Virus record (IMG/VR): IMGVR_UViG_3300029969_000011
Length of the DNA: 64,000 nt
Source: a virus
Taxonomy: Duplodnaviria > Heunggongvirae > Uroviricota > Caudoviricetes
Reading direction: 5' to 3' (one strand)
The notes beneath the pieces were generated by a model. It worked only from the letters and a program-made list of their open reading frames with translations, was not told the origin of the DNA and ran no database searches. The position numbers and the translations under genes are program-made. Every line of letters begins with the position of its first letter. The first letter of the stretch is position 1. Shown here in pieces: positions 2,503 through 59,395 of this stretch.

Positions 2503-2534
2503 TTAACATCTTTCCTTTCATCTTTTCTATATAT

Positions 2535-3055: not shown

Positions 3056-3056
3056 A

Positions 3057-3485
3057 TTATTCCTCGCTTTCTATCATATTCTTTGGTATTTCAATCTTAT
3101 CAAAATGCTGACAAGCGCTGTCATTAAACCAGTTTGTCCAAAGATTAGAGCTCCAGTATTGCTCATCTACAAGCTCTACGTTGAAATTTGTTATGTCGCT
3201 GAAAAGAGTATTGTCTGCATTGCCCTGTTCCCACAGGTCTATTCTTTCTTCCAGTGCCGCGCGTCTGGTATCCCACTTTTTATACGAGTTGTCATACTGA
3301 CACTGTTCTATGGGAATTGCAAAAGCACAAATTGCACTTGCTCCAATGCCGCATATACAAAGCAGCTGAGCAAATAGAGCCACTCCAAAATGGTTGTCAA
3401 AATAGCAACGGTCCTTCTTTAAACCTATCACTCTTATAACATAGGCAATAATGATTGCGCTTATAAAGATTAACATAAGTATCAT
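3057..3485 (-). CDS. membrane protein, tandem paralog 2
   Basis: 142 aa; paralogous to 2609..3055. Confidence 0.5.
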   Translation of the reverse strand: MILMLIFISAIIIAYVIRVIGLKKDRCYFDNHFGVALFAQLLCICGIGASAICAFAIPIEQCQYDNSYKKWDTRRAALEERIDLWEQGNADNTLFSDITNFNVELVDEQYWSSNLWTNWFNDSACQHFDKIEIPKNMIESEE

Positions 3486-3955: not shown

Positions 3956-4327
3956 TTACCACCAAACAAGGTTATAAAATTCTTCTGGAAATGTGCCGTC
4001 AGCGAACTTTTTATCTGCTATCTCAGTTATCTTCTTAGCAAGATAATTTATTCTATCAGCATCTTTTTCGCCTTCTTCTGCATACTCTTCGCTGTCAAAA
4101 TAAAAGGTATCACTATCGCATCTTTCAAAAGACTCATTACCATACATCTGAGCATAATTTCTCCATACGATGTCACCGATAATCTCAATGTCTCTTGCCT
4201 GAGCTTCAGTAAGCTGTACGTGCTCATACCAAATCTGTCTATGATTTGGCAGCCCCATTTCCTCACAGAATATATCTGTCAAATCGCGGCAATCTATTAC
4301 TGGTATATTTTTAAATGACTCATGCAT
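3956..4327 (-). CDS. hypothetical protein
   Basis: ORF 3956..4390 trimmed to internal ATG (4327) preceded by GGAGAG RBS to avoid 70-nt overlap. Confidence 0.4.
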   Translation of the reverse strand: MHESFKNIPVIDCRDLTDIFCEEMGLPNHRQIWYEHVQLTEAQARDIEIIGDIVWRNYAQMYGNESFERCDSDTFYFDSEEYAEEGEKDADRINYLAKKITEIADKKFADGTFPEEFYNLVWW

Positions 4328-4898
4328 TAGCTTCTCTCTCCTTCTCATCAATAATATAATGAATAACATTGTAAGCTTCGGGCCAGCCATATACGTGACC
4401 TACGCGTTCATCATCTTCATTCCAAGGATAACCCATACAAAGTGGAGTATATGAAATATCTCCCACAAGATTATCCATACAATCGTCAAGTAATATGTCA
4501 AGTTTGAGAAGTTGCTTCTGACGAATGTTTATAGTGTGACTTTCAACATATCCTTCAGGGAAGAAGCTAAGATTACGAGATAAGTGCTTAATCTTTTTGC
4601 GTAAATTCTCAGGCAAAGAACTGGTTACAAAGTAAATTTCGTGTCCCTCTTGGTAAAGTTTCTTAATATACTTCTTTGCATACTTGATAAGTTTAACCTT
4701 TTTCCACATATACTTAGACTCAAAGGCTTCCTTAACAAGACGAGAATAGCCGACTGGCAAATTTTTCTCCAGCCAATACTCCTTTACATCATCAATTTTT
4801 AAATTGAGATTTGGTATTCTCTCGTTTAAATACTCGATAACTGCTTCAGTAGTATTAACAACTACATTATCGAGGTCTATACCGATTTTTAATGTCAT
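4320..4898 (-). CDS. HAD-superfamily 5'(3')-deoxyribonucleotidase-like protein
   Basis: 192 aa; N-terminal IGIDLDNVV matches HAD motif I (DxDx[TV]). Confidence 0.45.
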   Translation of the reverse strand: MTLKIGIDLDNVVVNTTEAVIEYLNERIPNLNLKIDDVKEYWLEKNLPVGYSRLVKEAFESKYMWKKVKLIKYAKKYIKKLYQEGHEIYFVTSSLPENLRKKIKHLSRNLSFFPEGYVESHTINIRQKQLLKLDILLDDCMDNLVGDISYTPLCMGYPWNEDDERVGHVYGWPEAYNVIHYIIDEKEREANA

Positions 4899-5284
4899 TC
4901 ATTATCCTCCTCTACAGGGACCCACATTGTCTTAGTTACTTCCTTATATTCGCACTTTTCCGCCACTTGAGCATCATACTCAGGAATACCATAGCTATCA
5001 TGATAAGCAAAGGTCATCATATAGTTTTCATTATCTTCAATTTCAAAGATATAATCTCGCCAGATATATCCGTGGTCGAAGTATTCACCATCTTGACTCT
5101 CATAAGGAAAGACCTCGTAGTTAAAGAGTACAGCAATTTCATCAGAAGTAATCGTTATTCCTGACCTGAACTTCTCCTTTAATCTTGAAGCTATATACTC
5201 CATTTCCTTATTGGCTTCTTCCTCATTATTATTGACCCTATAATTATTGTAATTTTCAATTAACTCCGCATAATCGTATCCCAT
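4895..5284 (-). CDS. hypothetical acidic protein
   Basis: 129-aa ORF. Confidence 0.4.
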   Translation of the reverse strand: MGYDYAELIENYNNYRVNNNEEEANKEMEYIASRLKEKFRSGITITSDEIAVLFNYEVFPYESQDGEYFDHGYIWRDYIFEIEDNENYMMTFAYHDSYGIPEYDAQVAEKCEYKEVTKTMWVPVEEDNE

Positions 5285-7499: not shown

Positions 7500-7578
7500 T
7501 TCTTTCTCATTTTCTATATATATTATATCATAATATAAAAAAAAAGTCAAAGGTTTTTACGCCTTTGACTTTCATAAA
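7500..7578 (-). promoter_or_regulatory. fused intrinsic terminator + σ70 promoter cassette
   Basis: Minus-strand reads GAAAGTCAAAGGcgtaaaaaCCTTTGAC-T9 hairpin, then TGATATAAT extended -10. Confidence 0.6.
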
Positions 7579-9156
7579 TTAGTCTTCCTTCTTCTCGATT
7601 AACTTACTGCCGAGAACGCCACCGAGGATTGACTGAATGTCAATACCTGTTGAGCCCTTCAAGCCATCATTAACCTGATTGAGGGTTGTCATTATATCGC
7701 CTGTGAGCTTAGCTGTGTTACCTTCACCGTACATAGTGATTTTGTCAATCTGTGCCATAGGTGATGCGATTGCTCCAGCGATTGCAGGAAGCTGCTCGAA
7801 GTAAACCTTGAGTGCTTCAATCTGCATATCCATCTTAGCAGCGTCGCCGTACTGCTTCATAGCTTCAGCCTTCTTGAGGATACCCTCGGCTTCAGCCTCT
7901 GCCTTAGCAAGGAGAGCTGCCGCTTCAGCTTCACCCTTTGCCTTAATACCTGCTGCTTCAGCTTCCATAGCTGCCTGCTGTGCGAGAGCGGCTGCCTTAC
8001 GTGCCTCTGCCTTCTGCTGCTCTTCGTAAAGAGCTGCTTCTGCAGCGACCTTCTTAGCTTCTGCTTCACGCTCTGCCTGAACCTTCTGAGCCTCTGCCTG
8101 ACGCTCAATTTCGTTCTTCTTAGCTTCTGCTGACTTCTGACGCTCGAACAAGTCTGCTTCTGCCGCCTTCTGTGTTTCGATGAGACGAGCTTCAGCTTCC
8201 TGCTGTCTTGCGTACTTGTCTGCTTCTGCCTTCTTCTTGATTTCTGCTTCAAGAGCCTTCTCGGTGATGGCTACATTACGCTCCTTCAACTCGATTTCCT
8301 TTTCGAGCTTAGCAAGGTTTGCATCAGCGGTTGTAGTCTCAACAGTCTTACGCTGTTCCTGCTCCTGAATCTGGTATGCAGCGTCGGCTTCTGCCTTCTT
8401 GATGTCTGCCTGCTTCTTGAGTTCTGCCTTCTGAATAGCAAGCTCATTCTTCTTCTTAGCGATTTCTGTGTCTGCCGCAACCTGTGCATCGTTGGCATCC
8501 TTCTGTGCCTTAGCCTGAGCGATTGCGATTTCCTTTTCAGCATCTGCCTTAGCGATTGCCGCCTTCTTCTGAATCTTTACGGTATTGTCGATACCGAGGT
8601 TCTCGATAAGTCCCTGCTCATCAGAGAAATTCTGAACATTGAATGAAACAATTTCGAGACCCATAGCCCTGAAGTCAGGACCTGCATTTTCCGCAACCAT
8701 TTCTGCGAACTTCTTTCGGTCATTTACCATCTCTTCCAAGGTCATCTGACCGATGATTTCACGCATATTACCTTCAAGCACTTCTCGTGCTACCTTCGCG
8801 ATGTCTGTGACGTCCTTATTAAGGAAGTTCTCTGCCGCGATTGATAAAAGTTCTGGATTGCTGGATACCTTTACGTTTACATTACCATCAGCAATTACAT
8901 TGATGTAGTCTGCCGTTGGAACTGAGTTGGAAGTCTTTACGTCTATCTGAATTAACTGGAGAGTTAACTTATCCAATCTTTCGAGGAATGGAATCTTGAT
9001 AGATGACTTACCGATGACGGTCTTTTTACGAAGACCTGAGATGATGAATGCGGTGTCTGGCGGAGCCTTTACATAACCCGTCGCTATAATTACGATGAGT
9101 AAGATGATGGCGAGACCGCCGAGAATGAGTCCAAGATTAGCTAAAATTACTGACAT
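7579..9156 (-). CDS. flotillin-like SPFH/band-7 domain protein
   Basis: 525 aa; N-terminal TM, SPFH core, long Ala/Glu/Lys-rich coiled coil (EA repeats) typical of flotillin/YqiK. Confidence 0.65.
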   Translation of the reverse strand: MSVILANLGLILGGLAIILLIVIIATGYVKAPPDTAFIISGLRKKTVIGKSSIKIPFLERLDKLTLQLIQIDVKTSNSVPTADYINVIADGNVNVKVSSNPELLSIAAENFLNKDVTDIAKVAREVLEGNMREIIGQMTLEEMVNDRKKFAEMVAENAGPDFRAMGLEIVSFNVQNFSDEQGLIENLGIDNTVKIQKKAAIAKADAEKEIAIAQAKAQKDANDAQVAADTEIAKKKNELAIQKAELKKQADIKKAEADAAYQIQEQEQRKTVETTTADANLAKLEKEIELKERNVAITEKALEAEIKKKAEADKYARQQEAEARLIETQKAAEADLFERQKSAEAKKNEIERQAEAQKVQAEREAEAKKVAAEAALYEEQQKAEARKAAALAQQAAMEAEAAGIKAKGEAEAAALLAKAEAEAEGILKKAEAMKQYGDAAKMDMQIEALKVYFEQLPAIAGAIASPMAQIDKITMYGEGNTAKLTGDIMTTLNQVNDGLKGSTGIDIQSILGGVLGSKLIEKKED

Positions 9157-9751: not shown

Positions 9752-10684
9752 TTATCTGCTCTTAAGCATATCTCTTACGTATGTCATTGTAAGGCTACCG
9801 CAAATCTTACCAAAGTTCTCGCAAGCTGCGACTACCTCTGGCTCCTCCTTACGGCAATCCTCATACATCATCTTAGGAAGTACCTTTGCGATTGCTCCCA
9901 TATCGTGCTCGTCCCAATCAGGTCTAAGCTGACCCTCATCGACAAGCTTCTGAAGACACTTCTCAGTTCTACGAGCAGTTGCAACACTTGCTATGTACTG
10001 TCTCTCAGCCTCTCTCTTCTTGAGCTCCTCTGGGTCTACAGGCTTGTGATGGTCCTGATGAACCTCGGAAAACTTCTCTGCGACAATCTTAAGGTATGAA
10101 GGAGTTCTGCTGTTCTTGTTGTCAAGTCTGTCCTGAGACTTAATAACGACGCCCTCACCACAAGGCTCTGCGCCGAGCATAGACTGACCTACAAGCTGGT
10201 AAACAGTATCCCAACCTCTGAACTCACCTGTGTAGAAGATAGGAACAAAGTAGATTACCTGCTGAGTAAGCTGTACTGCGTTCTCAAGTCCCTTGAAGAT
10301 TGCGTATGTGTCCTCGTGAGGGAGGTACTCCTCTGTCTGAGTATCCCATACGTCGAACATATAGAAGTTCTTGTATCTGTTCTCAGGGTACTTGATTGTA
10401 TGCTTTGTAAGCCACTCGCCGAAGATTACATATCTGCCGTGCTGTGTAAGCATATCAATCTGAGAAACGTTGAGCTGCTGTGCCCAGTTCCAGAAACCGT
10501 TGAGTGTGTTAGCCTCATTAAGCTGGTTCTTACGAGAAAACGCAAGAACAGTATTTGTTGTGGGGTCATATGTGAATGATGCATTTGAGCCGTCAACCTT
10601 CTCGGTAATCGTTACCTGCTCACCGAGTGAAAAGACGGTATCATACTTCTCCTTGAAACGCTCGATATCTACATACTTTTTCAT
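9752..10684 (-). CDS. ATP-dependent RNA ligase (T4 Rnl2-like)
   Basis: 310 aa; N-terminus MKKY...; nucleotidyltransferase motif I TEKVDGSN (KxDG); size and layout like Rnl2. Confidence 0.65.
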   Translation of the reverse strand: MKKYVDIERFKEKYDTVFSLGEQVTITEKVDGSNASFTYDPTTNTVLAFSRKNQLNEANTLNGFWNWAQQLNVSQIDMLTQHGRYVIFGEWLTKHTIKYPENRYKNFYMFDVWDTQTEEYLPHEDTYAIFKGLENAVQLTQQVIYFVPIFYTGEFRGWDTVYQLVGQSMLGAEPCGEGVVIKSQDRLDNKNSRTPSYLKIVAEKFSEVHQDHHKPVDPEELKKREAERQYIASVATARRTEKCLQKLVDEGQLRPDWDEHDMGAIAKVLPKMMYEDCRKEEPEVVAACENFGKICGSLTMTYVRDMLKSR

Positions 10685-16346: not shown

Positions 16347-17828
16347 TTACTTCCAAGAATATACATCCTTAGAAAGTATCTTGACCATAGCCTCATAAGC
16401 ATTGCACTCGATGAGTTCTCTAAGGTCATTGAATGGACCTACACCAGAACCGCTGCAGTAACTGATGTTATCGTAGATAGTACCGATGTAGTTGTCCTGA
16501 CGTGCCTCAACATTCCAGCTTACGACCTTAGTCTCAGGGAGACCAGCCTCGCGAAGCTTCTTGTTCCACTTACCGACAATGGAGTCAGCAGTGTCTGGAC
16601 GTACGTCGTAGTCGAACTGACCGTCTGATATAACTACAAGAGCCTTTGGAACCTCGCGGGTTCTTACAGCAGTCTTATAGATAAGCTCGAAAGCCTTATC
16701 AAGGTTAGTGTTGTAACCCATGTCAGTTGACATTACCTTTCTAAGACACTCCTCAAGTCCCCAGCTATCCTCGAGGGATATGAAGTGAGGATTGTTAGTG
16801 AATGTCATATAAAGGTTGTGGTATGCACCCTTATTACGCTGAGCGAAGTAAGTTGCAAGACCAACAGAAGTTGCCATAGGCTGACCTAACATGGAGCCAG
16901 ATACATCTGCCATTACGACAACATCGTACTCTCCGCTAACGTAGTTAGGAAGAGCCTTCCACTGAGCTTCGTCTACAGGGTCAAGATGGTAACGAGAGCT
17001 ACCATACATATACTTGTACACGATGTCGTATGGGTAAAGAGTAGAAGCATTTACCTTAGCCTCGCCCTTTTCAAGGGAAGCCTTGTAAGCTGCAAATCTC
17101 TCCTGACAACGCTTGTTGTAAGTCTTGATATATCTGCTCATTGCAACAGATGGAACAGACTGGAAGTCTATCTCATCCCACTTACCAGCAGACATCTTTG
17201 TCTCGACGACGCCGATGTGTGCACGAAGCTTTGCAAGAGTCTTACGATATGTACGCTCGGTAAGACCGAGGTAACGACAAGCTCTACGACCAAGCTTACG
17301 AGTCTCCTGAGAAGAAGTATTGATAGATGGCATCCACTTAGCAAGGATGGAGATAGGCTGGTTCTTAGCCATACCCTCTGCATCAGCACGAAGCTGCTTG
17401 GAGATAAACTCCCATACCTTTGCCTCAATTACTGGATACTTTCCGTTAAGGAAGATGAAAAGGTCATCCCATCTACCTGTATCAACAATGGTCTGAAGAT
17501 TGCGGACAATCTTCTGAGGGTCGATACGACCGAGTTCTGCAAGCAGAATACGACCGATACGTCTCTCACCAAGACCACAGTCTCTGATGTTACGAGCGTA
17601 AAGGATAAGGTTATCTGCAAGAGTAGGGTTCTCCTGTCTTGCTGCCTTCCAATCGCTGATTATAGCGGAAGCATCTCTCTTTCTCATACCACCTATCTTT
17701 GCATAGATGTCAAGAAGAGCGCCGCCGTTTGTTGAACTATATGCGAGTCCACCGTTTTCGGTAAGTGTCTGATTAGCCATTGCCTTAGCTGCGTTTACGA
17801 AATTACTCATTACACATCTCTCCTTCAA
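16347..17828 (-). CDS. Ro60-like protein (TROVE-like helical N-terminal region + vWA domain)
   Basis: 493 aa; C-terminal vWA MIDAS VVVMADVSGSM (DxSxS); N-terminal ~300 aa helical region consistent with a TROVE module. Confidence 0.5.
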   Translation of the reverse strand: MKERCVMSNFVNAAKAMANQTLTENGGLAYSSTNGGALLDIYAKIGGMRKRDASAIISDWKAARQENPTLADNLILYARNIRDCGLGERRIGRILLAELGRIDPQKIVRNLQTIVDTGRWDDLFIFLNGKYPVIEAKVWEFISKQLRADAEGMAKNQPISILAKWMPSINTSSQETRKLGRRACRYLGLTERTYRKTLAKLRAHIGVVETKMSAGKWDEIDFQSVPSVAMSRYIKTYNKRCQERFAAYKASLEKGEAKVNASTLYPYDIVYKYMYGSSRYHLDPVDEAQWKALPNYVSGEYDVVVMADVSGSMLGQPMATSVGLATYFAQRNKGAYHNLYMTFTNNPHFISLEDSWGLEECLRKVMSTDMGYNTNLDKAFELIYKTAVRTREVPKALVVISDGQFDYDVRPDTADSIVGKWNKKLREAGLPETKVVSWNVEARQDNYIGTIYDNISYCSGSGVGPFNDLRELIECNAYEAMVKILSKDVYSWK

Positions 17829-18787: not shown

Positions 18788-18999
18788 ATTATCAAGATAC
18801 GTTTTTTTCTCGTGCCTCTGCCAATTGGGCTACTCCCCGATATGCTGCCCGAGACAGGAATCGAACCGTTACCCTCCGCCTTCTTCAGGCGGCGTGCACA
18901 CCTATGCACTACAAGGGCAGTCTGGTCGGGGAGGATGGGATTCGAACCCACACTCATCGTGCTCCTAACGCATTAATTGAGTAGCTGACGTATCTTTAT

Positions 19000-19075
19000 T
19001 GGTGCCGAGGGGGAGAGTCGAACTCCCTACGCCAAGCTCTTCAGGCTTGCGCTCTACCAGTTGAGCTACCTCGGC
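19000..19075 (-). tRNA. tRNA-Phe (GAA)
   Basis: Perfect cloverleaf: acceptor gccgagg/cctcggc, T-arm gggag-agtcgaa-ctccc, anticodon loop tcttcag (codon TTC), CCA encoded. Confidence 0.75.
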
Positions 19076-19208
19076 ATTATCAAGACAGTTATACTTATAA
19101 ACTCTACCCGTTGAGCTACGCGACGCGAACGCCACGGTGGGATTCGAACCCACATCCCCCTTTGTGCAAAAAAGAAAAAGTTTTAAGTGTTTTGCTGAAC
19201 TGCCTTAT

Positions 19209-19285
19209 TGGTCGGGGCGGTGGGATTCGAACCCACAGAATCGTGATTTTGAGTCACGCACGTTTACCAGTTACGTCACGCCCCG
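19209..19285 (-). tRNA. tRNA, anticodon CAA (Leu-type anticodon) with class I (short variable arm) body
   Basis: Perfect acceptor cggggcg/cgccccg, T-arm, D-arm acgt-ttaccagtt-acgt; anticodon loop ttttgag (codon TTG); 5-nt variable loop. Confidence 0.55.
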
Positions 19286-19412
19286 ATATAAAATGCAAAA
19301 TATGAAGAGGATACCACACCCTGCAGAGGCCCATATTTATTTATATCCCGCACCATAAGCTTCTTCGCGCTTCAATCCGTCGACTGTCCTCATGGCCATC
19401 CGTGCGGTTTTC

Positions 19413-19488
19413 TGGGTGGAAAGATGAGATTCGAACTCACACCTTCATGGGCCACAACCATGCGCTCTACCATTAAGCTACTCACCAC
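19413..19488 (-). tRNA. tRNA-His (GTG)
   Basis: Anticodon loop gccacaa (codon CAC); extra 5' G-1 and C73 discriminator + CCA characteristic of tRNA-His. Confidence 0.7.
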
Positions 19489-19595
19489 ATCAATTCCGAC
19501 TTTAACCCAAGTCGGCAGGGTTAAATAAAACCAAATCTGCCTCCACACAGTGGAGTTAGCTGTAGACAATAGCACTGAACATAACTATTCCTACT

Positions 19596-19671
19596 TGGTC
19601 TCGGTTATAGGACTCGAACCTATGACTTTCTCCTTGTAAGGGAGACACTCTCGCCGCTGAGTTAAACCGAG
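19596..19671 (-). tRNA. tRNA-Val (TAC)
   Basis: Perfect acceptor ctcggtt/aaccgag, T-arm atagg-actcgaa-cctat, anticodon loop ttgtaag (codon GTA). Confidence 0.7.
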
Positions 19672-19698
19672 ATTATCAAGACTCTCTATACCTTGCGG

Positions 19699-19772
19699 TT
19701 CCGGAAGGGGGATTCGAACCCCCATATGTACGATTTTAGGTCGTATGACTTAGCCACTTTGTCTATTCTGGA
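19699..19772 (-). tRNA. tRNA-like, anticodon region TAA with irregular loop (C33?)
   Basis: T-arm ggggg-attcgaa-ccccc, acceptor tccggaa/ttctgga; anticodon stem tacga/tcgta with loop ttttagg. Confidence 0.35.
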
Positions 19773-19920
19773 AAGGAATATTGCTGAAGAGTCTTTATTT
19801 GGTTCGGGTATGCTTATCGGAGTCAAGTACTCGCAGTTCCTCTTTCGAGGTATTTTCTTCGGAGTAAAGACCTTAAGGTTCGCGTAACCTCTCGTGCCCT
19901 AACCCATATCCGAAACCCGA

Positions 19921-19997
19921 TGGTGCCGTTAGAGGGACTCGAACCCACACTAACCAGTTCCTAAGACTGGCGCCTCTGCCAATTGGGCTATAACGGC
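19921..19997 (-). tRNA. tRNA, anticodon TAG (Leu-type anticodon) with class I, Gln-like body
   Basis: Perfect acceptor gccgtta/taacggc + CCA, anticodon stem ccagt/actgg loop tcctaag (codon CTA), 5-nt variable loop, 3-bp D-stem. Confidence 0.5.
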
Positions 19998-20061
19998 ATT
20001 GTTAAACAGTTCGAGTTACGGTCAAACTGAAGGTAAGCACCGATTAAGCAGCCAGATACTC

Positions 20062-20292
20062 CTATTCAGAATAATCAAGCTTTTCAATTCTTTTCATATC
20101 GGAATATGTAACCTGCTTCCAACCACTCTTAGGGTGGTTAAAGGCACACATCCAGCAGGAACAATGAATTTTACCTTTGGCTAACTTTCCGTCGCAATCA
20201 CAAAACCAATGATGAGTTTCATCAATGATATGTCTTTTGCGAGCTATGTGTTGTCTTCTCTGATAACGATAGTATGCTCTATCTCTTTCCAT
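20062..20292 (-). CDS. Arg-rich zinc-finger protein inside the tRNA array
   Basis: 76 aa; basic N-terminus, HxxxC...CxC...CxxC cluster. Confidence 0.4.
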   Translation of the reverse strand: MERDRAYYRYQRRQHIARKRHIIDETHHWFCDCDGKLAKGKIHCSCWMCAFNHPKSGWKQVTYSDMKRIEKLDYSE

Positions 20293-20432
20293 TGTGCCGC
20301 CCTCCGAAAAATTATAATAACGAATATAGGCAACCCACTACTTACTTTCCTTACCAGCGTAAATTAAGCACCTTCGCTACGTATTGCTACTACCTCAGTA
20401 TTTAATTTACTATGCCCTTCCCTCGATATTCG

Positions 20433-20975
20433 TTACTTAGTAATTCTGTTTGCGATACCAGAAGCAGCGTAGCTGTCTGGCTTGATAGCAACCTCGAAGC
20501 CGCAAGTCTTAATCCAAGAGGTAATCTCAGTAATAAGCTGATTTGTCTTACCTGCGTGACCAATGTCAGCGTGGACAGCGAAAGTAAATCTTCCGTCATT
20601 AGACATTTGCTCAAGGTCAATATCATAGTCGATAAGAGCATAAGCAAGAGCATCTACGAAACCTGTTGCGTTCTCAATAGAACGAGAAGTCTCTTCCTGT
20701 ATCTTAGTCTTAAGAACTCTTATCTTTGGTATATCTTGCTTGCGATAGAAGAAAATGCCGCCATCACCGATACGGTGAACAGCAATTACTTCCACCATTC
20801 TTGTGCACTTGTGGTTCTGGCTATCTGTACCCACAGTTATTTCGTATGAGGCGTTAGGTGCCTTTGCGATGTAGTCGGCTACAATAGAGCCTATCTGTGA
20901 ATAACGAACCTTCTCACCATTACCACGAGTAAATATCTTCTCGGTAATCACGGTTAATCTCTCCTTTATATTCAA
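20433..20975 (-). CDS. YkuK/DUF458-like RNase H-fold protein
   Basis: 180 aa; VGTDSQ and AVHADIGH motifs resemble the GTDSQ/HADSN signatures of the YkuK family. Confidence 0.4.
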   Translation of the reverse strand: MNIKERLTVITEKIFTRGNGEKVRYSQIGSIVADYIAKAPNASYEITVGTDSQNHKCTRMVEVIAVHRIGDGGIFFYRKQDIPKIRVLKTKIQEETSRSIENATGFVDALAYALIDYDIDLEQMSNDGRFTFAVHADIGHAGKTNQLITEITSWIKTCGFEVAIKPDSYAASGIANRITK

Positions 20976-21107
20976 ATATTCAAGACAGTTATGTTAGCTA
21001 CCTTTTGATTAAAATTCAAATGCTTTTAAAGAATTGCTGGACTGTCTTAGTGGTGATAATACGTGCCGCGGCACCACAGACCGCTATATGTGGTCGCACG
21101 TATTCTC

Positions 21108-21194
21108 TGGTCGGCTCGGTGGGACTCGAACCCACACGCCCTTGCGGGCACCAGCTCCTTAGGCTGGCGCGTCTGCCAATTCCGCCACGAGCCG
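21108..21194 (-). tRNA. tRNA-Leu (anticodon AAG), class II
   Basis: 87 nt; perfect acceptor cggctcg/cgagccg + CCA; long variable arm gccc-ttg-cgggc; anticodon loop tccttag (codon CTT). Confidence 0.55.
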
Positions 21195-21262
21195 ATTTAT
21201 CAAGACTCATCTTGTGTTTTTATATGCCCAAAAAACTTTCAGAGTTGCTGCTGAGTCTTATC

Positions 21263-21339
21263 TGGTCGGAGATGCGGGACTCGAACCCACGGCCTCTCGC
21301 TCCCAAGGCGAGCGCTCTACCAAACTGAGCTAATCCCCG
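21263..21339 (-). tRNA. tRNA-Pro (TGG)
   Basis: Anticodon stem ctcgc/gcgag, loop tcccaag (codon CCA); D-arm gctc-taccaaact-gagc; CCA encoded. Confidence 0.65.
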
Positions 21340-21409
21340 ATTAATTGGCGGCTTCAGGGACGCTACAAGATAACCAACCGCCAGAGTTATCACGCACTTA
21401 ATGTCCCAA

Positions 21410-21486
21410 TGGTCGGCGAGATGGGATTCGAACCCACACTGAATGGATTTTAAGTCCATTGCCTCTGCCTGTTGCGCTACTCGCCG
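21410..21486 (-). tRNA. tRNA, anticodon TAA (Leu-type anticodon) with class I body
   Basis: Perfect acceptor cggcgag/ctcgccg + CCA; anticodon stem atgga/tccat loop ttttaag (codon TTA); 5-nt variable loop. Confidence 0.5.
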
Positions 21487-23045: not shown

Positions 23046-23120
23046 TGGTTTCTCCGCTTGGATTCGAACCAAGGAATGGCAGTTTTAGAGACTGCTGTCT
23101 TAAGCCTCTTGACGACGGAG
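23046..23120 (-). tRNA. suppressor tRNA, anticodon CTA (reads TAG); tRNA-Gln-like body
   Basis: Perfect acceptor ttctccg/cggagaa + CCA; T-arm cttgg-attcgaa-ccaag; anticodon stem gcagt/actgc, loop tttagag = C-U-CUA-A-A; 3-bp D-stem, variable loop CATTC as in E. coli tRNA-Gln. Confidence 0.7.
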
Positions 23121-23125
23121 AATTA

Positions 23126-23201
23126 TGGTTGCCGCTCTGGGAATCGAACCCAGTAAGACGGAGTTAGAGTCCGTTGTCCTCGCCAACTAAACGAAGCGGC
23201 A
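23126..23201 (-). tRNA. second suppressor tRNA, anticodon CTA (reads TAG)
   Basis: Perfect acceptor tgccgct/agcggca + CCA; T-arm ctggg-aatcgaa-cccag; anticodon stem acgga/tccgt, loop gttagag (anticodon CUA); 3-bp D-stem. Confidence 0.65.
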
Positions 23202-23342
23202 AAATTCTCCAAGACGCCTTTACATTTACCTTTTAAACATTTTAAGTGTTCTATTGTAAGAAATGATTGCAGGATGCGTCTTTCATTCTTATAAAATAAT
23301 TATAACATATTTTATAAAAATTGTCAAATTTTTGAGTGCTTA

Positions 23343-27775: not shown

Positions 27776-28681
27776 TTAGTGCGCCGCCTTATCAGCTTCG
27801 TGAAGACGCTCAAGGTCACGCATAAAGTCTGCACTATAACGAGCTGCCATCTTCTCCATATACTTCTCGCCCTTGTAGTGGTCCATATGGTGGTTGATTA
27901 AAAGAACGATATAGTGATTACGGTCAGAGCAACCAGTATGAGATAAGTAGAAGTATGCTCCTACATTCTCATGGTTATAGAAGTGTGCCTCTTCTGTAGG
28001 GTTGTTGCGAGCGTCGTGATAAACCTTGCAGTAAGGCTTACCAATATCGTGGAAGAGTGCCGCAGTTCTTACTAAGTCAGAACGAGTTGAGTCTCTTACT
28101 GTCTTATTCATCTCGTCAACGATATACTTCTCTGCCGCTCTCATATGTGCGCCGATAGTTAAAGAGTGGTGATGATTATCGTGAGGGATATTATCAGCTT
28201 CGAAAAGCATTTCTCCTATTACATCGAAGTTATTATCATTACCGAAAGTCATTATCTTATCCCAACCCTCAGAGTAGTCAGGTACCTCGAAGCTTCTAAG
28301 CATACGGTCGAGAACGAACTCAGGAACGACACGCTCACGGGAAGCATTACGCTCCTTTACAACCTCGAAAGGAGGTACGCAAAGAACGCATATCTTTACA
28401 AGGTCAGGTATCTTAGATAACTCCTTTAAGAAGCCTATACGACGCTTAGCATTGACGTTTGTTGCGTCATAGTAAACATCGACATTAGCCTTTAAAAGGT
28501 CGCGAGTACGAGTTAACATTAAGTTGAATACTTCTGCGTTATGAGTCTGGTCATTAACGTCTCCAAATACGTCCTGCCGTATCTGGTCAGAAGATACATA
28601 AGCTGCTTCAGAGAAGTAAGCCTTATATAAAGTAGACTTACCAGAGCCAGGGAGTCCTACAGTGAAAAATAATCTTGGCAT
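27776..28681 (-). CDS. polynucleotide 5'-kinase (T4 Pnk-like) fused to an HD-domain phosphohydrolase
   Basis: N-terminus LFFTVGLPGSGKST plus downstream kinase region resembling T4 Pnkp; C-terminus HHHSLTIGAHM...LFHDIGK = HD motifs; start ATG 28681 with AAGGAGA RBS. Confidence 0.6.
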   Translation of the reverse strand: MPRLFFTVGLPGSGKSTLYKAYFSEAAYVSSDQIRQDVFGDVNDQTHNAEVFNLMLTRTRDLLKANVDVYYDATNVNAKRRIGFLKELSKIPDLVKICVLCVPPFEVVKERNASRERVVPEFVLDRMLRSFEVPDYSEGWDKIMTFGNDNNFDVIGEMLFEADNIPHDNHHHSLTIGAHMRAAEKYIVDEMNKTVRDSTRSDLVRTAALFHDIGKPYCKVYHDARNNPTEEAHFYNHENVGAYFYLSHTGCSDRNHYIVLLINHHMDHYKGEKYMEKMAARYSADFMRDLERLHEADKAAH

Positions 28682-28683
28682 AT

Positions 28684-28908
28684 TTAGTCTCCTTTCCATT
28701 TTACAAATCCGCCAATGTTAATAATGAAATATGCTATATACATTAAAACCATTGGCAAATTAAATACTCCTACAATATTGACCGCTATCCATAGGAAGTT
28801 TCCTATTATCCAAGCTATCCAACCAATACGCTTTTTTAACATAATGAGGATATTTCCGCCGAGACTAAAGATAGCTCCAAGAATAGAAAGTATCAATATC
28901 AAATTCAT
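28684..28908 (-). CDS. small multi-TM membrane protein
   Basis: 74 aa, three hydrophobic segments. Confidence 0.4.
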   Translation of the reverse strand: MNLILILSILGAIFSLGGNILIMLKKRIGWIAWIIGNFLWIAVNIVGVFNLPMVLMYIAYFIINIGGFVKWKGD

Positions 28909-33091: not shown

Positions 33092-33253
33092 TCTCTTTCC
33101 TCCTTACTTAGAGTTGCCGAAGAAACCATCAAGGACAGCTTTAGTAAGGACATATACAATTATGCCAAATAATATCAATCCCATTTGAATTTCTCCTTTC
33201 ATCTTTTGATATAAAAATTATATCATAAAAGAAAGGGAAAGTCAAATAATTGA

Positions 33254-33643
33254 TTATCCCTTTCTGATGTTATATCCATACTGGTCGGAGTGATAAAATT
33301 CTATCCAGTATTTTTCTTTTTCGGTCTGTTCTTCTTTTGGGCAAACCTCTACGATTTCCCAAGTGAAGTTCTCCAAACCTTCTTTGAACATAGCGTCATA
33401 GATTTGACCAGCTATTCGTTCAATATTACAGCCGCGCTTAGCATGGGTACGCCAACGGTCTATAAACTTTGTTGTTTTACCAATATAAACTTTTTCATCA
33501 TTTATATTAGTAATCTTATAAATGCCGCCCTTATCTTTCTTGTCACCAAGAACTCGTTTAAAGAGCTCCTCTATTTGAGTTTTATAGTAAGTCTCATATA
33601 GGAGTTTATAAAAGATTTCTGGACGGGAGAAGCCAGGTGCCAT
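33254..33643 (-). CDS. GIY-YIG homing endonuclease (possibly the C-terminal part of a TAG-readthrough fusion starting at 34285)
   Basis: GIYKITNINDEKVYIGKT...R..H, catalytic E near the end; no RBS at its ATG and the frame stays open upstream through three TAGs to ATG 34285. Confidence 0.55.
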   Translation of the reverse strand: MAPGFSRPEIFYKLLYETYYKTQIEELFKRVLGDKKDKGGIYKITNINDEKVYIGKTTKFIDRWRTHAKRGCNIERIAGQIYDAMFKEGLENFTWEIVEVCPKEEQTEKEKYWIEFYHSDQYGYNIRKG

Positions 33644-34285
33644 AGACTTTAACTTAGCTATATCTGAAAGAGTTAAAGTATCGAGAGTAATGTGATAGAA
33701 GTCGCGTTGCTTACGAACTTCCTCATCTTTCTTAAACTAAGCTACGATTGCCGCCTGTCTTTGTTCAAAGGCTTTAATTTCTTCAGTCAACGCCGCCTTT
33801 TTCAAATTTATTTCGTCGCTGAACGTCTAAAAATTTACAGCCAACTGCTCCTTATCTTTCTCATATTGAGCCTGAACACCAGCTATCTTCTTTTCTCGTT
33901 CTGCTGTCGCCGCGGCAACGATTTCAGCATTTTCTTTTTGACGCTCAAGTTCAGCTTCCCTATCCATTTTAGCATACTCTTCACGAGTTGCTATATATTG
34001 TGCGTCAAGTCTTTGTACATCGGTATTATATTGAGCTTTCTTCTCTTCGAGCATACAGGTGTATTCTCTTAATGATGCCTGTTTTCCTGCAATCTCCTTT
34101 TGGATTTCATCCGTCATTTCCTTGACGGCGGCATCTTTCTTCTCAATAAGTCCTTTCTTAACTTTCTCCTATTCGGAAGAAAACTTTAGCTTACCTTTAA
34201 GAGACTTAACCGATAGAATATCGCAGACGGCATATGTAATGCCGCCACACACGATACCAAGTAATATGACCAATATCCATATCAT
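33644..34285 (-). CDS. TM + coiled-coil protein interrupted only by TAG codons
   Basis: ATG 34283-34285 with AGGGGTG RBS; MIWILVILGIVCGGITYAVC TM then coiled coil; TAGs at about 34169, 33827 and 33737 are the only stops; contains ORF 33827..34117. Confidence 0.4.
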
Positions 34286-34611
34286 TCAGTATTCACCCCT
34301 GAAGCTAAATCAATTCCCACTATAAATGGATATTGAGCAGATAGATTATAACCATGTCCATCTTTACATTGGGAGTTAAATTTCTTGATATAAAAACTAC
34401 GCCACTCATTTAATTTTTCGTTTGGAAATTCTCCTATTATATAAAATAGAAAATTCTCTTTCCCATACTTTTCCATTTCGTTGAGAAGTAAAGGATTTTC
34501 TTTTATTTCTTCTTTAATATAATGGCGATATATGATTTTAGGACTTTCAATTGTTTTACCCACATATATCTTTCCATTAATTAAATTTTTAAGATAGTAT
34601 AAGTATCCCAT
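34282..34611 (-). CDS. GIY-YIG homing endonuclease
   Basis: 109 aa; GYLYYLKNLINGKIYVGKT = GIY...YIG motif. Confidence 0.55.
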   Translation of the reverse strand: MGYLYYLKNLINGKIYVGKTIESPKIIYRHYIKEEIKENPLLLNEMEKYGKENFLFYIIGEFPNEKLNEWRSFYIKKFNSQCKDGHGYNLSAQYPFIVGIDLASGVNTE

Positions 34612-35432
34612 TACTCCATTTCAGCTCCACAGTCTGGGCAGTACTTAGTTTTCTCCTGAAATGCTCCTTCACATTCTGAACACCAGTAATATGTACACAT
34701 ACCACTTGGAGTACTATCGTGCATTTTAGCCCATTCATATACATCTATCCAGCGACCCTTTGGACGCCAAGTAAATTCCTTAATAGGCTTATGTCTACCG
34801 CAGCAATCCTTTGCGCTTTCTGGACAAGCCTTAATCTGTCCTGCTTCACACTTAGGCACAAGAACAGTAGAAAGTATTGCCTTTTCTTCATCAGAAATCT
34901 GTCGTGCCGCCAAGACCTCTCTTGTCATACCATTGGCAACCTCATGGATTTCCTTTGAAGCTCTGCTACACATACGCTCATTACAGAAGTGCATAAACGC
35001 TCTTAAATTAAAAGTAATATAGATTACTGTTGGAGTAGCATTAGGAAGAACGTCACGAGCATCTTCGGTTCTTACTCCTTTACCAATCATTAGTTTATAC
35101 TCAGCAAGAGCATTGTCGCAGTAATAACTGAGTTCTTCTTTAAGTTCTGCTGGTACTCCATCTAATGCCCAGTCTAAATCATCGTAAGTTACATAGCGCT
35201 GAGACTGTTGTGAATATGAAGCGATTCTATGTCTTACAATCTGATGAGAACAAACTCTTGAAATTCCTTCTACCCTAAAAGTAAATGAGCAATGTTCAAG
35301 AACAGAATGATGCCCCGAACGAATACAACCCTTTATAACATTAAGGTCAGGTTCACTATCATAACAAGCTGCTGCCGCCTCAGCACAAACATATAACGGA
35401 TTAGGTGTATATCCTACAAGTGTTACTTTCAT
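34611..35432 (-). CDS. thyX: flavin-dependent thymidylate synthase ThyX with C-terminal zinc-ribbon extension
   Basis: 273 aa; ThyX signature RHRIASYSQQSQRY (RHRxxxxxxxS); C-terminus CSEC...CPDCG. Confidence 0.75.
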   Translation of the reverse strand: MKVTLVGYTPNPLYVCAEAAAACYDSEPDLNVIKGCIRSGHHSVLEHCSFTFRVEGISRVCSHQIVRHRIASYSQQSQRYVTYDDLDWALDGVPAELKEELSYYCDNALAEYKLMIGKGVRTEDARDVLPNATPTVIYITFNLRAFMHFCNERMCSRASKEIHEVANGMTREVLAARQISDEEKAILSTVLVPKCEAGQIKACPESAKDCCGRHKPIKEFTWRPKGRWIDVYEWAKMHDSTPSGMCTYYWCSECEGAFQEKTKYCPDCGAEME

Positions 35433-35448
35433 TCTTTATCTTCCTCCA

Positions 35449-36006: not shown

Positions 36007-36200
36007 TTCCTCCTTTTCATTCTTTTATTAAATTATAACACAAATATTTTAAAAAGTCAAATAATTAAAAAAAAGAGTAGTCAATGACTACTCCTTTCGT
36101 TTGCGTGTTCCCATTTCGATATTTTCTGTTTTTGCCTTTTTACTTTTCTCGCTTACGCAATTGAGTTGCCAAGTCAATCACATATCTTTTCTAATGGGTA

Positions 36201-36701
36201 TTAGATAGTGCGGAAGTGGTTATATTTTCCATCTCCCCACCATTGGTTGCAAGTCCAGCCTGCAAATGTGTCGGGGTTGTTAAAGTAATAATCTACAGCG
36301 TCTGCCATCGCTGAGTAATGGATTGAGCCGCCGCAGAAATAATCTGAATATTTATTAAATCCCCAAGGAGCACAAGTCTGGTCGAGTACTGCTTCAACCG
36401 AACCAGGCCAACGAGAATCATTTACCATATTCATTACTGAAGCTACGATTTTTGCTCTTTCGTAGACATCAGGCATTCCACCGTATTCACTTGCGACAAT
36501 CTTGCAAAGCAATGTGTAATCATAATCGCTAACTACAGGAGCGGTTGCATTGCTTACATACGGATTTACTATTTCTAAATTTGGATTACATTCGCTACAT
36601 TTTCTACACTCAATATCGTTTGTATCTGTGATTTCATAACAAGTTGAATCAACCCAGTGACAAGTTGACTTATGTATATAGTGTGTACTTGGTTTGTACA
36701 C
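36201..36701 (-). CDS. cell-wall hydrolase (SleB/Hydrolase_2-like)
   Basis: 166 aa; LLCKIVASEYGGMPDVYERAKIVASVMNMVN resembles the SleB-family core. Confidence 0.45.
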   Translation of the reverse strand: MYKPSTHYIHKSTCHWVDSTCYEITDTNDIECRKCSECNPNLEIVNPYVSNATAPVVSDYDYTLLCKIVASEYGGMPDVYERAKIVASVMNMVNDSRWPGSVEAVLDQTCAPWGFNKYSDYFCGGSIHYSAMADAVDYYFNNPDTFAGWTCNQWWGDGKYNHFRTI

Positions 36702-36725
36702 TGTGTACTCTCTTGGTGTCTCTGC

Positions 36726-37088
36726 CTATGTTGGTGCCGCTTCAGTAACTTCGGCAGTTGTTACTGGTGCCGCCGGCTCAGTTTCTTCAACTGAGGAAGT
36801 GGATGTGCTTGTGAGTGTTGTAGTTGTGGATGTGCTTGTGAGCGAAGTTGTGGATGTGCTTGTGGTTGTAGTTGAGGTAACAGTGGTAGCTGTTGTGACT
36901 GGAGTTGTTGTAACTACTGTTGTAGTTGTTGACTCAGTTATTTCAGTAACCATTGCCGCCTTTACTGGCAGGTTTGTGCCGTGAGCTTTGTCAGTTCTTA
37001 CCACGGTAGGTGTCGCTAAACAAAGCACGACAGCAGCTGCAAGAACTGCTGTCGCAACCTGAATTGTTCTTTTTACAGTTATTTTCAT
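36726..37088 (-). CDS. secreted Thr-rich low-complexity protein
   Basis: Start ATG 37088 with GGAGG RBS; signal peptide MKITVKRTIQVATAVLAAAVVLCLA; (T/S/V)-rich repeats. Confidence 0.45.
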   Translation of the reverse strand: MKITVKRTIQVATAVLAAAVVLCLATPTVVRTDKAHGTNLPVKAAMVTEITESTTTTVVTTTPVTTATTVTSTTTTSTSTTSLTSTSTTTTLTSTSTSSVEETEPAAPVTTAEVTEAAPT

Positions 37089-37203
37089 TATAAATTCCTC
37101 CTTTTCGTCCTTGCGGACTATGAGGGGAACACGCATTTATACCGCCCGTTTAGCGGACGGCGATATATTTAAGTAGAAAATTATATAACCCCTTATATAA
37201 AAT

Positions 37204-59337: not shown

Positions 59338-59395
59338 GTCAAGAGTAAAATCTTGACTTTTCTTTTTATTTGTGCTATAATTATAATATAAATGA
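59338..59395 (+). promoter_or_regulatory. fused intrinsic terminator + σ70 promoter cassette (plus-strand version)
   Basis: gtcaagag-taaaa-tcttgac + T-run; TTGACT (in hairpin 3' arm)-17 bp-TATAAT; AAAGGAG RBS before 59413. Confidence 0.55.

Follow-up and report, generated by a model that had tools for sequence, protein, structure and literature searches.

A predicted membrane-anchored GIY-YIG nuclease gene with in-frame TAG codons, next to a thyX cassette carrying a homing endonuclease remnant, in a TAG-recoded phage

The window analysed here, a stretch of 64,000 nucleotides from the IMG/VR record IMGVR_UViG_3300029969_000011 (Caudoviricetes), contains a locus in which all genes lie on the minus strand: thyX, an open reading frame (ORF) of 109 amino acids, and a frame that opens with the ATG at 34285. 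Under code 11 the locus yields two ORFs with a GIY-YIG signature, at 33254-33643 (129 aa) and 34282-34611 (109 aa), as the initial annotation had reported. Both match Pfam PF01541 (E 8.8e-10 and 4.6e-4, respectively), and the Tyr, Tyr, Arg, His, Glu and Asn residues of the motif are found in the two of them. The frame starting at 34285 had been described as interrupted by TAG alone, and this is indeed the case, since neither TAA nor TGA occurs until the TAA at 33254. The three TAG triplets, placed by frame translation and comparison with relatives, are codon 39 (34169..34171, minus strand), directly after a transmembrane (TM) helix, codon 153 (33827..33829, minus strand) and codon 183 (33737..33739, minus strand). 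With the TAA plus TGA frequency of the window itself (6007 per 128000 positions), the probability that a random frame of 343 codons is free of both triplets is about 7e-8.

The rest of the window has the features of a TAG-recoded, code-15-like phage. Open frames of at least 100 aa, which add up to 58.5 kb with TAG as a stop, reach 80.4 kb when TAG is read as sense, and the longest ORF grows from 628 to 1184 aa. Late genes of 1183, 709 and 1120 aa, with 13, 9 and 17 in-frame TAGs, are open solely under this reading. Throughout the block between 40.7 and 57 kb, where an endolysin and a tail fibre are encoded, each gene carries from 1 to 17 in-frame TAGs (3 to 17 where the gene has at least 200 aa); PHROG scans of six fragments of this late block gave no matches. 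Two tandem amber-suppressor tRNA(CUA) genes were detected by ARAGORN on the minus strand, at 23046-23122 and 23126-23201 (Rfam tRNA scores of 55.4 and 53.4 bits). An Rfam scan of the window matched only tRNA families: no group I intron, no theta/HDV-like ribozyme beside the suppressor tRNAs and no other ribozyme was found.

Read in this code, positions 33254..34285 of the minus strand form one nuclease gene of 343 codons, closed by the TAA at 33254-33256 and matched by full-length homologues. Sequence conservation in the homologues runs unbroken across all the TAGs and across the internal ATG that was supposed to mark a gene boundary. One relative, L085, carries a TAG-free version with CAG, TTG and CAG at codons 39, 153 and 183. 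The initial annotation had envisaged, as evidence against its reading, an uninterrupted gene without GIY-YIG in related genomes, but the uninterrupted gene of L085 is a full-length homologue of the nuclease gene. We regard the frame of the window as ancestral and normal in its single-gene form, in a phage with genome-wide use of TAG as sense. Hundreds of relatives have the same full-length architecture, and one of these lacks TAG. The picture of a TM/coiled-coil gene with a homing endonuclease on either side was therefore abandoned, the downstream GIY-YIG ORF being the C-terminal domain of that same gene. The proposal of a fusion made when TAG is decoded keeps one part, because the nuclease domain can be made only with the three TAGs as sense, and loses the other, as no readthrough joins a free-standing homing endonuclease gene (HEG) to its neighbour.

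An internal start at the ATG at 33643 (M215) was also considered and rejected, because the residue is not conserved among homologues (Leu in 74 of 96) and, as had been noticed initially, inspection reveals no Shine-Dalgarno-like sequence upstream. A standard-code interpretation, where TAG is a stop and the locus encodes a 38-aa membrane peptide, some coiled-coil fragments and a 129-aa homing endonuclease, does agree with the code 11 ORF list, which gives exactly those pieces, and with the GenBank record of phAss-1, where the homologous gene is split into two fragments. It clashes, however, with the late genes of the same phage, which require TAG as sense, with the lack of TAA and TGA over 343 codons, with the continuous conservation over the TAGs and the uninterrupted gene of a relative, and with the variable M215 lacking a ribosome binding site; the 129-aa piece would moreover be left without any DNA-binding domain. 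We give this interpretation next to no probability. Hardly more credible is a decaying pseudogene, in which a formerly intact membrane nuclease gene would be gathering nonsense mutations. Three premature stops do appear under code 11, but every interruption is a TAG, with no TAA, no TGA and no frameshift among them, and at the six checked motif positions 96 of 96 sequences agree. The TAGs at codons 39 and 153 are also common to five relatives of 70-97% identity, and relatives keep their frames intact with up to 18 TAGs. From this sequence evidence, the frame from 34285 to 33254 is read as one gene of ordinary length in a phage with TAG as a sense codon.

The predicted product of this gene has four parts. 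The initial annotation had proposed a TM helix plus a coiled coil from the ATG at 34285, and an AlphaFold2 (AF2) model agrees. The N-terminal TM helix (residues 2-26; 34208..34282, minus strand) is called from the AF2 helix and its hydropathy; and because the residues after the anchor helix are mildly basic, the bulk of the protein is predicted to be cytoplasmic. Next comes a continuous helix or coiled-coil stalk of about 155 residues (37-192; 33710..34177, minus strand), modelled with pLDDT values mostly of 82-95 from residue ~61 onwards and of 67-75 for residues 41-60; in the PDB fold search it gave generic coiled-coil matches and nothing specific. A small helical adaptor (residues 194-249; 33539..33706, minus strand), defined from the AF2 model and the alignment, is the best-conserved non-catalytic part of the protein, with no known family and no Pfam match. 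The C-terminal end (residues 252-343; 33257..33532, minus strand) is an I-TevI-type GIY-YIG catalytic domain by PF01541 and alignment, the six invariant residues being Y256, Y267, R277, H281, E324 and N339. Profile searches detected no NUMOD, helix-turn-helix (HTH) or Zn-finger DNA-binding domain in either the 343-aa protein or the 109-aa ORF. Fold searches of the non-catalytic parts against BFVD and PDB returned generic coiled coils and otherwise GIY-YIG domains, with the exception of two viral proteins that have the same architecture as the 343-aa protein. The product is thus predicted to be a membrane-anchored GIY-YIG nuclease carried on a coiled-coil stalk.

This protein belongs to a large family. 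At least 300 homologues were found, and nearly all of the 120 listed are full length (331-377 aa), with identities to the window protein from 97% down to ~42%; 835 clusters at 50% identity match at E<=1e-30, and 443 IMG/VR stretches match the family. A search of GenBank phages at the nucleotide level found nothing related to the window, and at the protein level phAss-1 was the sole match beyond the bare GIY-YIG domain. In a GTDB genome scan the family occurs solely on metagenome-assembled contigs of 50-175 kb, which are probably mis-binned phage. In all eight related loci compared (L001, L002, L003 and L084-L088) the gene sits between thyX and a Metallophos gene. Far from showing a presence/absence polymorphism, it is present in L086, L087, L084, L002, L088 and L085. 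These data bear on the idea that the 343-aa protein could be a homing endonuclease in its own right, mobile and equipped with an unusual targeting region at its N-terminus. Its catalytic domain is closest to those of I-TevI and group I intron endonucleases and its gene adjoins thyX, a classic HEG target, but the gene is syntenic and near-universal in the phage group, without an insertion pattern among the eight loci; the protein has a TM anchor and no NUMOD, HTH or Zn-finger domain, and its nuclease is at the C-terminus and not at the N-terminus. Mobility of this protein is thus very improbable. Compared with I-TevI and related GIY-YIG HEGs (PDB 1ln0/1mk0; TIGR01453), it differs in the C-terminal position of the nuclease, in lacking the linker and DNA-binding domain, in its predicted TM anchor and in the lack of any sign of mobility. 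Altogether, the family appears to be a large and so far unstudied and unannotated one, and its gene a conserved core gene of these phages.

The upstream 109-aa ORF has a different history, which is tied to thyX. This gene (34611..35432, minus strand), correctly recognised at the outset (Thy1, E 1.7e-55), encodes 273 aa with a Thy1 domain and a C-terminal Zn-ribbon-like tail, as seen by Pfam and comparison. The comparison with HEG-less relatives proposed in the initial annotation allowed the insertion to be mapped. The closest relative, L086, has no HEG, and its nuclease gene is 97% identical to that of the window; blastn breakpoints at 35442 and 34340 delimit a replacement cassette of 1103 bp (34340..35442, minus strand), made of a thyX allele with the Zn-ribbon tail and the HEG catalytic domain. 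The cassette has no similarity to L086 by blastn, and its flanks are 95-96% identical. In sequence identity the window ThyX reaches 70% with its L085 counterpart but only 24% with those of L086 and L084. Residues 1-91 of the 109-aa ORF (34339..34611, minus strand) correspond, by PF01541 and comparison with L088, to a truncated free-standing GIY-YIG HEG: this catalytic part shares 55% identity with the N-terminal end of a HEG of 263 aa that occupies the same site in L088 and has weak NUMOD-like matches. The remaining 18 codons plus stop (34282..34338, minus strand) are the displaced end of the ancestral thyX, as placed by the DNA homology breakpoint at 34339; the tail AQYPFIVGIDLASGVNTE is homologous to the end of the L086 ThyX, AQYPFIVGVDLAPEVNTE. 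The stop codon of the ORF, TGA, shares bases with the start codon of the nuclease gene (ATGA). Presence/absence polymorphism is found for this ORF, which is absent in L086, L087, L084 and L002; L088 carries the full-length HEG at the site and L085 a different ORF of 65 aa.

The 109-aa ORF is best read from these comparisons as a decayed HEG remnant, separate from the 343-codon gene, that has lost the DNA-binding half typical of I-TevI-like enzymes. The HEG would have entered together with a divergent, foreign thyX allele by cassette replacement, and its catalytic remnant would now run in frame into the final 18 codons of the thyX that was replaced. The initial suggestion that homing endonucleases had invaded the locus therefore stands for the upstream ORF and fails for the nuclease gene. 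The cassette offers base-pair-resolved evidence of a HEG-associated allele replacement, followed by HEG decay.

As for the amino acid inserted at TAG, the closest relatives are the most informative. Codon 39 is also TAG in L086, L084, L088 and L002, and codon 153 in five relatives, whereas TAG-free relatives have Leu codons (TTG/TTA) at codon 153; codon 183 is CGT in L002. Where L003, L084 or L086 carries TAG, the window shows CAA or CAG in five cases, and at six further sites of L003 it has AAG, GCA, AGG or GAA, all in poorly conserved coil. In site-level comparisons among close relatives, CAG or CAA is opposite TAG in 7 of 15; the rest are the Leu codons opposite codon 153 or a mixture of codons in weakly conserved coil. 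A tally over the whole alignment is noisy, since distant homologues align badly along the coiled coil, and the count was limited to the conserved half and close relatives. Gln is 4.4-fold enriched opposite TAG in the reliably aligned C-terminal half, where a single alignment column has 7 TAG against 57 Gln. Decoding of TAG as Gln is thus the most likely reading, and it predicts the nuclease peptides FSSEQEK, NFQTFSDEINLK and AAIVAQFK. Separately, U1-A72 of both suppressor tRNAs matches the tRNA-Gln of the phage; as another tRNA in the window has the same feature, this is weak evidence for Gln. The phage would decode TAG as sense, most likely as Gln, through its own two tRNA(CUA) genes.

Gut phages recoded from TAG to Gln (code 15) with suppressor tRNAs have been described (Borges et al., 10.1101/2021.08.26.457843; Peters et al., PMC9523058; phAss-1, PMC10607447), and the recoded genes already reported include an intron endonuclease and a TM protein, with delayed translation as a proposal (Borges et al., 10.1101/2021.08.26.457843). 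Like them, the window has tRNA(CUA) genes, concentrates its TAGs in structural and lysis genes, and keeps an early region mostly in standard code with a few strongly recoded genes. Unlike the cases described, its recoded gene encodes a predicted membrane-anchored nuclease inside an early-type operon, and a preferential recoding of this family is not reported in that code 15 literature (10.1101/2021.08.26.457843, PMC9523058, PMC10607447). Across 33 loci with at least 5 TAGs in the flanks (flanking ORFs taken from a crude ORF caller), the median TAG/(TAG+CAA+CAG) is 0.27 in the nuclease gene and 0.10 in the flanking ORFs, and the nuclease gene exceeds its flanks in 28 of the 33 (Wilcoxon p=2.6e-6). 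The window is a modest example, with TAG in 3 of 19 Gln-type codons, a share only modestly above the local average and below that of 5 of the 6 late-block genes of at least 300 aa. The enrichment fits a translational gating of a potentially toxic nuclease and, for the family as a whole, lends some support to the temporal switch suggested initially.

How such a gate might operate depends on the promoters. A pattern search found 25 consensus sites in the window, where chance alone would give 0.08. One of them, an extended -10 promoter (TTGACT-N14-TG-N-TATAAT; 36032..36060, minus strand), preceded by a terminator-like hairpin (36070-36098), marks the start of a predicted transcription unit with a 185-aa gene, thyX, the 109-aa ORF and the nuclease gene; the next consensus promoter (33217..33245, minus strand), 9 nt past the nuclease stop, marks its predicted end. 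The nuclease gene would therefore be co-transcribed with thyX from a host-type consensus promoter. Without suppressor tRNA, translation would end at codon 39 and release a 38-residue membrane peptide. Full-length nuclease would need three successive suppression events, and 8-18 in some relatives, so its output should rise steeply, and late, with the level of suppressor. Nevertheless, the suppressor tRNAs have their own consensus promoter (23299-23327, minus strand), of the same host type as the early-region genes; this weakens the idea of a temporal switch, as suppression may set in early and leave any late switch weak.

The closest parallel to this architecture is the defence nuclease SNIPE, or PD-lambda-1 (PMC13190303; PMC9519451), which is likewise anchored in the membrane at its N-terminus and continues through a helical or coiled-coil middle region to a C-terminal, cytoplasm-facing nuclease of the GIY-YIG superfamily. 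The anchor is predicted here as the hydrophobic helix 2-26. SNIPE is also phage-borne, in a lambdoid prophage beside ren/P. It differs in its DUF4041 domain (PF13250; own score 1.2e-19) and its T5orf172/MUG113-type nuclease, where our family has the PF01541 I-TevI type, in its length (500 aa versus 343) and in its hosts (Enterobacteria, versus a probable Clostridia/Bacillota phage for the window). Among the matches listed for 29 family members at E<=1, none was to PF13250; T5orf172 was absent from the family in the Pfam search, and the PADLOC model PD-Lambda-1 was not among the matches listed. BLASTP against SNIPE gave nothing significant (E>=0.12), and hhalign aligned 41 coiled-coil columns and no more (76% probability). 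With homology tests negative, the parallel is inferred from architecture. A second system to be considered is Uzume, a bacterial single-gene defence in which GIY-YIG homology has been noted (bioRxiv 10.1101/2024.10.26.620412). Its PADLOC models PDLC03973/03975 match weakly to the coiled coil (residues 40-178) and to the adaptor plus nuclease (213-339), with E 2.1e-5 in 6 of 29 and 4.4e-3 in 4 of 29 family members; these UzuA matches are partial and weaker than those to generic HEase models, and the models span ~278 positions, apparently without an N-terminal TM.

By analogy with SNIPE, a nuclease held at the membrane would act on DNA there, for example that of superinfecting phages, and tethering would spare the replicating DNA of the phage itself. 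This exclusion role is the most likely one, judged from architecture. The same gene structure could alternatively serve host-DNA degradation and nucleotide salvage, like T4 endonuclease II (DenA), and feed the thyX pathway. DenA is a soluble, early enzyme without TM or stalk, and in an enzyme that degrades the nucleoid one would not expect a long stalk or the conservation of a membrane anchor. There was also no sign of a DNA modification by which the phage would protect its own genome, and gating by TAG would hold back an activity that is usually needed early. We consider salvage unlikely. Taken together, these comparisons point with good probability to a large, gut-type recoded phage with a single TM-anchored nuclease gene, a separate HEG remnant that belongs to a thyX cassette, and a SNIPE-like role suggested by architecture.

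For the annotation of these phages, the immediate consequence is that the standard code turns the nuclease gene into two entries, a small membrane ORF and a supposed ‘homing endonuclease’, and one published code-15 annotation, that of phAss-1, does so as well, so that a conserved phage core gene is mislabelled. The family, carried by large and probably lytic gut phages, would also offer a second and independent case of the membrane-tethered nuclease design that was recently demonstrated for SNIPE. At the family level the gene is much more amber-recoded than its early-operon neighbours, and this heavy recoding of one gene makes the stop-codon-recoding timer testable on a single gene. A bolder hypothesis, which we find possible but rather doubtful, is that the membrane-anchored I-TevI-type family (at least 835 clusters at 50% identity) is an independent SNIPE analogue derived from a HEG catalytic domain, with amber recoding selected as its gate. 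The yield would then scale with the n-th power of the suppression efficiency (n = 3-18), and a dangerous nuclease would stay off until the phage has switched the genetic code of the cell.

The minus strand carries every gene from 32 to 57 kb of the window, and under the standard code the pieces listed in the initial annotation are all present there: a 38-aa ORF starting at ATG 34285, a 96-aa ORF in the same region, a 129-aa ORF (33254-33643), a 109-aa ORF (34282-34611) and thyX (34611-35432). Read in one frame from 34285 down to the TAA at 33254-33256, the DNA has 343 codons, of which only three are internal stops, each of them a TAG (codons 39, 153 and 183). From the window's own TAA and TGA frequency, the chance that a random frame of this length lacks both triplets is about 7e-8, which implies selection for keeping the frame open. 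The sequence AGGGGTG sits 9-15 nt 5′ of ATG 34285. A separate start for the GIY-YIG part at M215, as first proposed, does not hold, because no Shine-Dalgarno-like sequence was found before this codon, 74 of 96 sequences have Leu at its position, and alignments A1 and A2 show unbroken conservation both there and across the three TAG positions. Judged by this conservation, the TM/coiled-coil part and the GIY-YIG part are one gene. The TAG-interrupted frame noticed at the outset is real, but a known phenomenon, genome-wide amber recoding, explains its main “anomaly”.

The window phage decodes TAG as sense. Among 19 tRNA genes detected by ARAGORN at 18.8-24.6 kb, two in tandem carry the anticodon CTA (23046-23122 and 23126-23201), and both were confirmed as tRNAs by Rfam. 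When TAG is read as sense, the total of open frames of at least 100 aa rises from 58.5 to 80.4 kb and the longest grows from 628 to 1184 aa. In this reading, the block at 40.7-57 kb consists of genes of 1183, 709, 1120, 411 and 880 aa, with 13, 9, 17, 5 and 4 in-frame TAGs, respectively, and pieces of the last two match endolysin and tail-fibre PHROGs. The first 39 kb are nearly without TAG and encode auxiliary and early-type functions, such as an SPFH/flotillin-like protein, an RNA ligase, an AAA_33+HD kinase/phosphatase, a UvrD helicase and thyX. Code-15 phages have been described with just such a contrast between a TAG-rich late block and a nearly TAG-free early region (bioRxiv 10.1101/2021.08.26.457843; PMC10607447; PMC9523058).

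Some other features of these regions deserve mention. ARAGORN calls six tRNA-Leu genes at 18844-21486 (anticodons aag twice, caa, taa twice and tag), but five of them, at only 76-77 nt, have the length of class I tRNAs and lack the long variable arm that a tRNA-Leu should have, and the assignment is uncertain. Early-region proteins encoded on the minus strand (7579-9156, 9752-10684, 27776-28699 and 16347-17828) include the SPFH/flotillin-like protein (525 aa), the RNA ligase, the PNK-like AAA_33+HD protein and a DUF2828/vWA protein, a set that, near a large tRNA array, suggests a tRNA-repair module. At 36201-37136 (minus strand), two code-11 ORFs merge over a single TAG into a 311-aa frame; one, of 136 aa, has a TM helix and a Thr/Ser-rich linker, and the other is 166 aa long. 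In two related phage loci, L085 and L088, the gene at the corresponding place has a Dockerin_1 match and a weak match to Hydrolase_2 (cell-wall hydrolase), domain matches that hint at a Clostridia-type host.

TAG is very probably decoded as Gln. Opposite the window's TAGs, the related locus L085 has CAG, TTG and CAG (codons 39, 153 and 183), whereas L003 has AAA, TTA and CGT, the last shared with L002. Conversely, the window shows CAA or CAG opposite two of the eight TAGs of L003, two sites of L084 and one further site of L086; at the other six L003 sites, which lie within the poorly conserved coil, it has AAG, GCA, AGG, GAA, GAA and AAG. Within the C-terminal half of a 70-sequence family alignment, the part that aligns reliably, no residue is more enriched opposite TAG than Gln (4.4-fold), and a single column holds 7 TAG against 57 Gln. 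Both suppressor tRNAs share the first pair U1-A72 with the phage tRNA-Gln(UUG), which is weak evidence for Gln because another tRNA of the window also has it.

The TAG-to-Gln translation has at least 300 homologues, from 97% to about 42% identical. Among the 120 matches listed, nearly all have lengths of 331-377 aa and a query coverage of 90-100%, a few being shorter (228-302 aa, coverage about 61-87%). An exhaustive profile search recovered 835 representatives of 50%-identity clusters at E<=1e-30, the best 150 of them mostly of 300-380 aa, and at least 443 matching stretches were found in IMG/VR, many within contigs of 100-195 kb. Since the database entries had evidently been translated with Gln at TAG, TAG content was checked in the DNA itself: IMG/VR members have 0-18 TAGs each and never an internal TAA or TGA, homologues in L001/L002, L003, L084, L086 and L088 have 2-8, and that of L085 (68% identical) has none and translates intact under code 11. 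In Phage Phass-1 (phAss-1, OQ749652.1), a homologous TM/coiled-coil/GIY-YIG gene with 8 in-frame TAGs (2437-3417) lies immediately 5′ of two tRNA-Sup-CTA genes, and its GenBank code-15 annotation consists of “hypothetical proteins” of 46 and 144 aa with an unannotated gap between them. The family is a large, unannotated group of I-TevI-type nucleases with a predicted membrane anchor from big gut phages. Directly 3′ of the window's gene, a small minus-strand ORF (33104-33202) with its own consensus promoter encodes a hydrophobic peptide of 26-32 aa (MGLILFGIIVYVLTKAVLDGFFGNSK), which is kept in L084 and L086 (81-88% identity).

An AlphaFold2 model built from the 96-sequence alignment is confident (mean pLDDT 86.7) and comprises a hydrophobic helix (residues 2-26), a single continuous helix (37-192), an adaptor of three short helices (194-249) and an alpha/beta GIY-YIG domain (254-331). 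A strongly hydrophobic 19-mer begins at about residue 2-3 in 99% of family members. The 15 residues on its C-terminal side are mildly basic (median net charge +1), from which an N-out/C-in membrane anchor is predicted. The nuclease domain matches Pfam PF01541, and the match to TIGR01453, “group I intron endonuclease”, spans only positions 1-89 of 215. Residues Y256, Y267, R277, H281, E324 and N339 are invariant in all 96 sequences; by position, we take them to be the GIY, YIG, Arg, His, Glu and Asn motif residues of I-TevI. No DNA-binding module of homing endonucleases was found in the 343-aa protein, and searches of Pfam, NCBIfam and PDB with stalk and adaptor returned only generic coiled coils (apolipoproteins, ATP synthase subunit b).

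A membrane anchor, a central helical region and a C-terminal nuclease of the GIY-YIG superfamily are also the parts of the defence nuclease SNIPE/PD-lambda-1. The SNIPE gene was recovered through primer sequences in the supplement of its paper and located in E. coli genomes, which list it as a DUF4041 protein of a lambdoid prophage, beside ren/P. SNIPE scores 1.2e-19 with DUF4041 and about 1e-17 to 1e-19 with T5orf172/MUG113; for 29 members of the family found in the window, 25 domain families were listed, and neither of these is among them, nor is PADLOC PD-Lambda-1 among the PADLOC matches listed. BLASTP between SNIPE and this family gave no significant match, and hhalign of the two profiles paired 41 coiled-coil columns only, at 76% probability. 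Membership in the SNIPE family is consequently rejected, and the likeness is architectural and possibly convergent. On architectural grounds, a SNIPE-like role at the membrane is a tentative option, and a role on host DNA like that of DenA, the T4 endonuclease II, seems somewhat less likely. PADLOC models of UzuA, from the single-gene defence system Uzume, gave weak partial matches in 6 of the 29 members (best E 2.1e-5).

The nuclease family is preferentially recoded relative to its neighbouring genes. In 33 related loci with at least 5 TAGs in the flanking ORFs, a definition of recoding that is independent of the target gene, the median TAG share of Gln-type codons is 0.27 in the nuclease gene versus 0.10 in the flanks (pooled, 0.27 versus 0.11), and it is higher in the nuclease gene at 28 loci (Wilcoxon p=2.6e-6). 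Several loci show a lone TAG-rich nuclease gene amid near-TAG-free neighbours (for instance, 11 TAGs versus 1, 12 versus 1 or 13 versus 2). In the window, the share is 3/19, lower than in most late-block genes, and the neighbouring thyX, 185-aa, 87-aa and Metallophos genes have no TAG.

The sequence TTGACT-N14-TG-N-TATAAT, a consensus promoter of the extended -10 type, is found at 25 places in the window versus 0.08 expected (for example, at 12-40, 7522-7550 and 59353-59381), always on the coding strand and nearly always in inter-ORF gaps, with 21 copies in 0-39 kb and only 2 in the TAG-rich 39-57 kb block. A terminator-like hairpin precedes one minus-strand copy (36060-36032), from which a unit is predicted to start that comprises the 185-aa gene, thyX, the 109-aa ORF and the nuclease gene. 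The next copy (33217-33245, minus strand) begins 9 nt past the stop codon of the nuclease gene. From these positions, the nuclease gene is probably transcribed by the host RNA polymerase together with early-type genes. Its translation would depend on TAG suppression and, since all n TAGs must be read, its onset may be steep and delayed, with a yield roughly proportional to the nth power of the suppression efficiency. This delay may be brief, because the two suppressor tRNAs have an early-type promoter directly upstream (23299-23327).

The 109-aa ORF has a different history. Its residues 1-91 form a GIY-YIG catalytic domain and share 55% identity with the N-terminus of a 263-aa protein at the same thyX-proximal site of L088. 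Over its length, this protein can be aligned with PHROG homing endonucleases, and it shows weak NUMOD-like matches. The remaining residues, 92-109 (AQYPFIVGIDLASGVNTE), come not from the endonuclease but from the C-terminus of another thyX allele, whose last residues are AQYPFIVGVDLAPEVNTE in L086 and AQFPFIVGVDLAQGEDGKCP in L084. Compared by blastn with L086, the closest relative (nuclease gene 97% identical), the window shows 96% identity down to 35443 and 95% onwards from 34339, and the intervening 1103 bp (34340-35442) have no similarity to L086 and stand in place of 699 bp there. In L086, the replaced stretch contains the thyX (gene at 4255-5004), which is only 24% identical in protein to that of the window; the latter resembles those of L085 (70%) and L088 (61%), Zn-ribbon-like tail included. 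This C-terminal extension (CxxC...CxxC) occurs in one of the two allele types of near-identical phages.

The junction between thyX and the nuclease gene is empty in L086, L087, L084 and L001/L002, and holds a full-length homing endonuclease gene (HEG) in L088 and a truncated one in the window and in several contigs (P0121-P0126). In L085, an unrelated 65-aa Cys-rich ORF (9800-9997) fills the slot that the HEG takes in the window and L088, making this junction a hotspot for small insertions. The simplest reading of these sequences is a homing-type cassette transfer, in which an HEG and its linked thyX allele would have moved in together; a right-hand crossover within the HEG would have left a catalytic-domain stub in frame with the old thyX tail, and in this fusion the ATGA where its stop overlaps the start of the nuclease gene would be kept. 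Read in this way, the locus would offer a case, resolved to the base pair, of the replacement of an HEG and thyX cassette followed by decay of the HEG.
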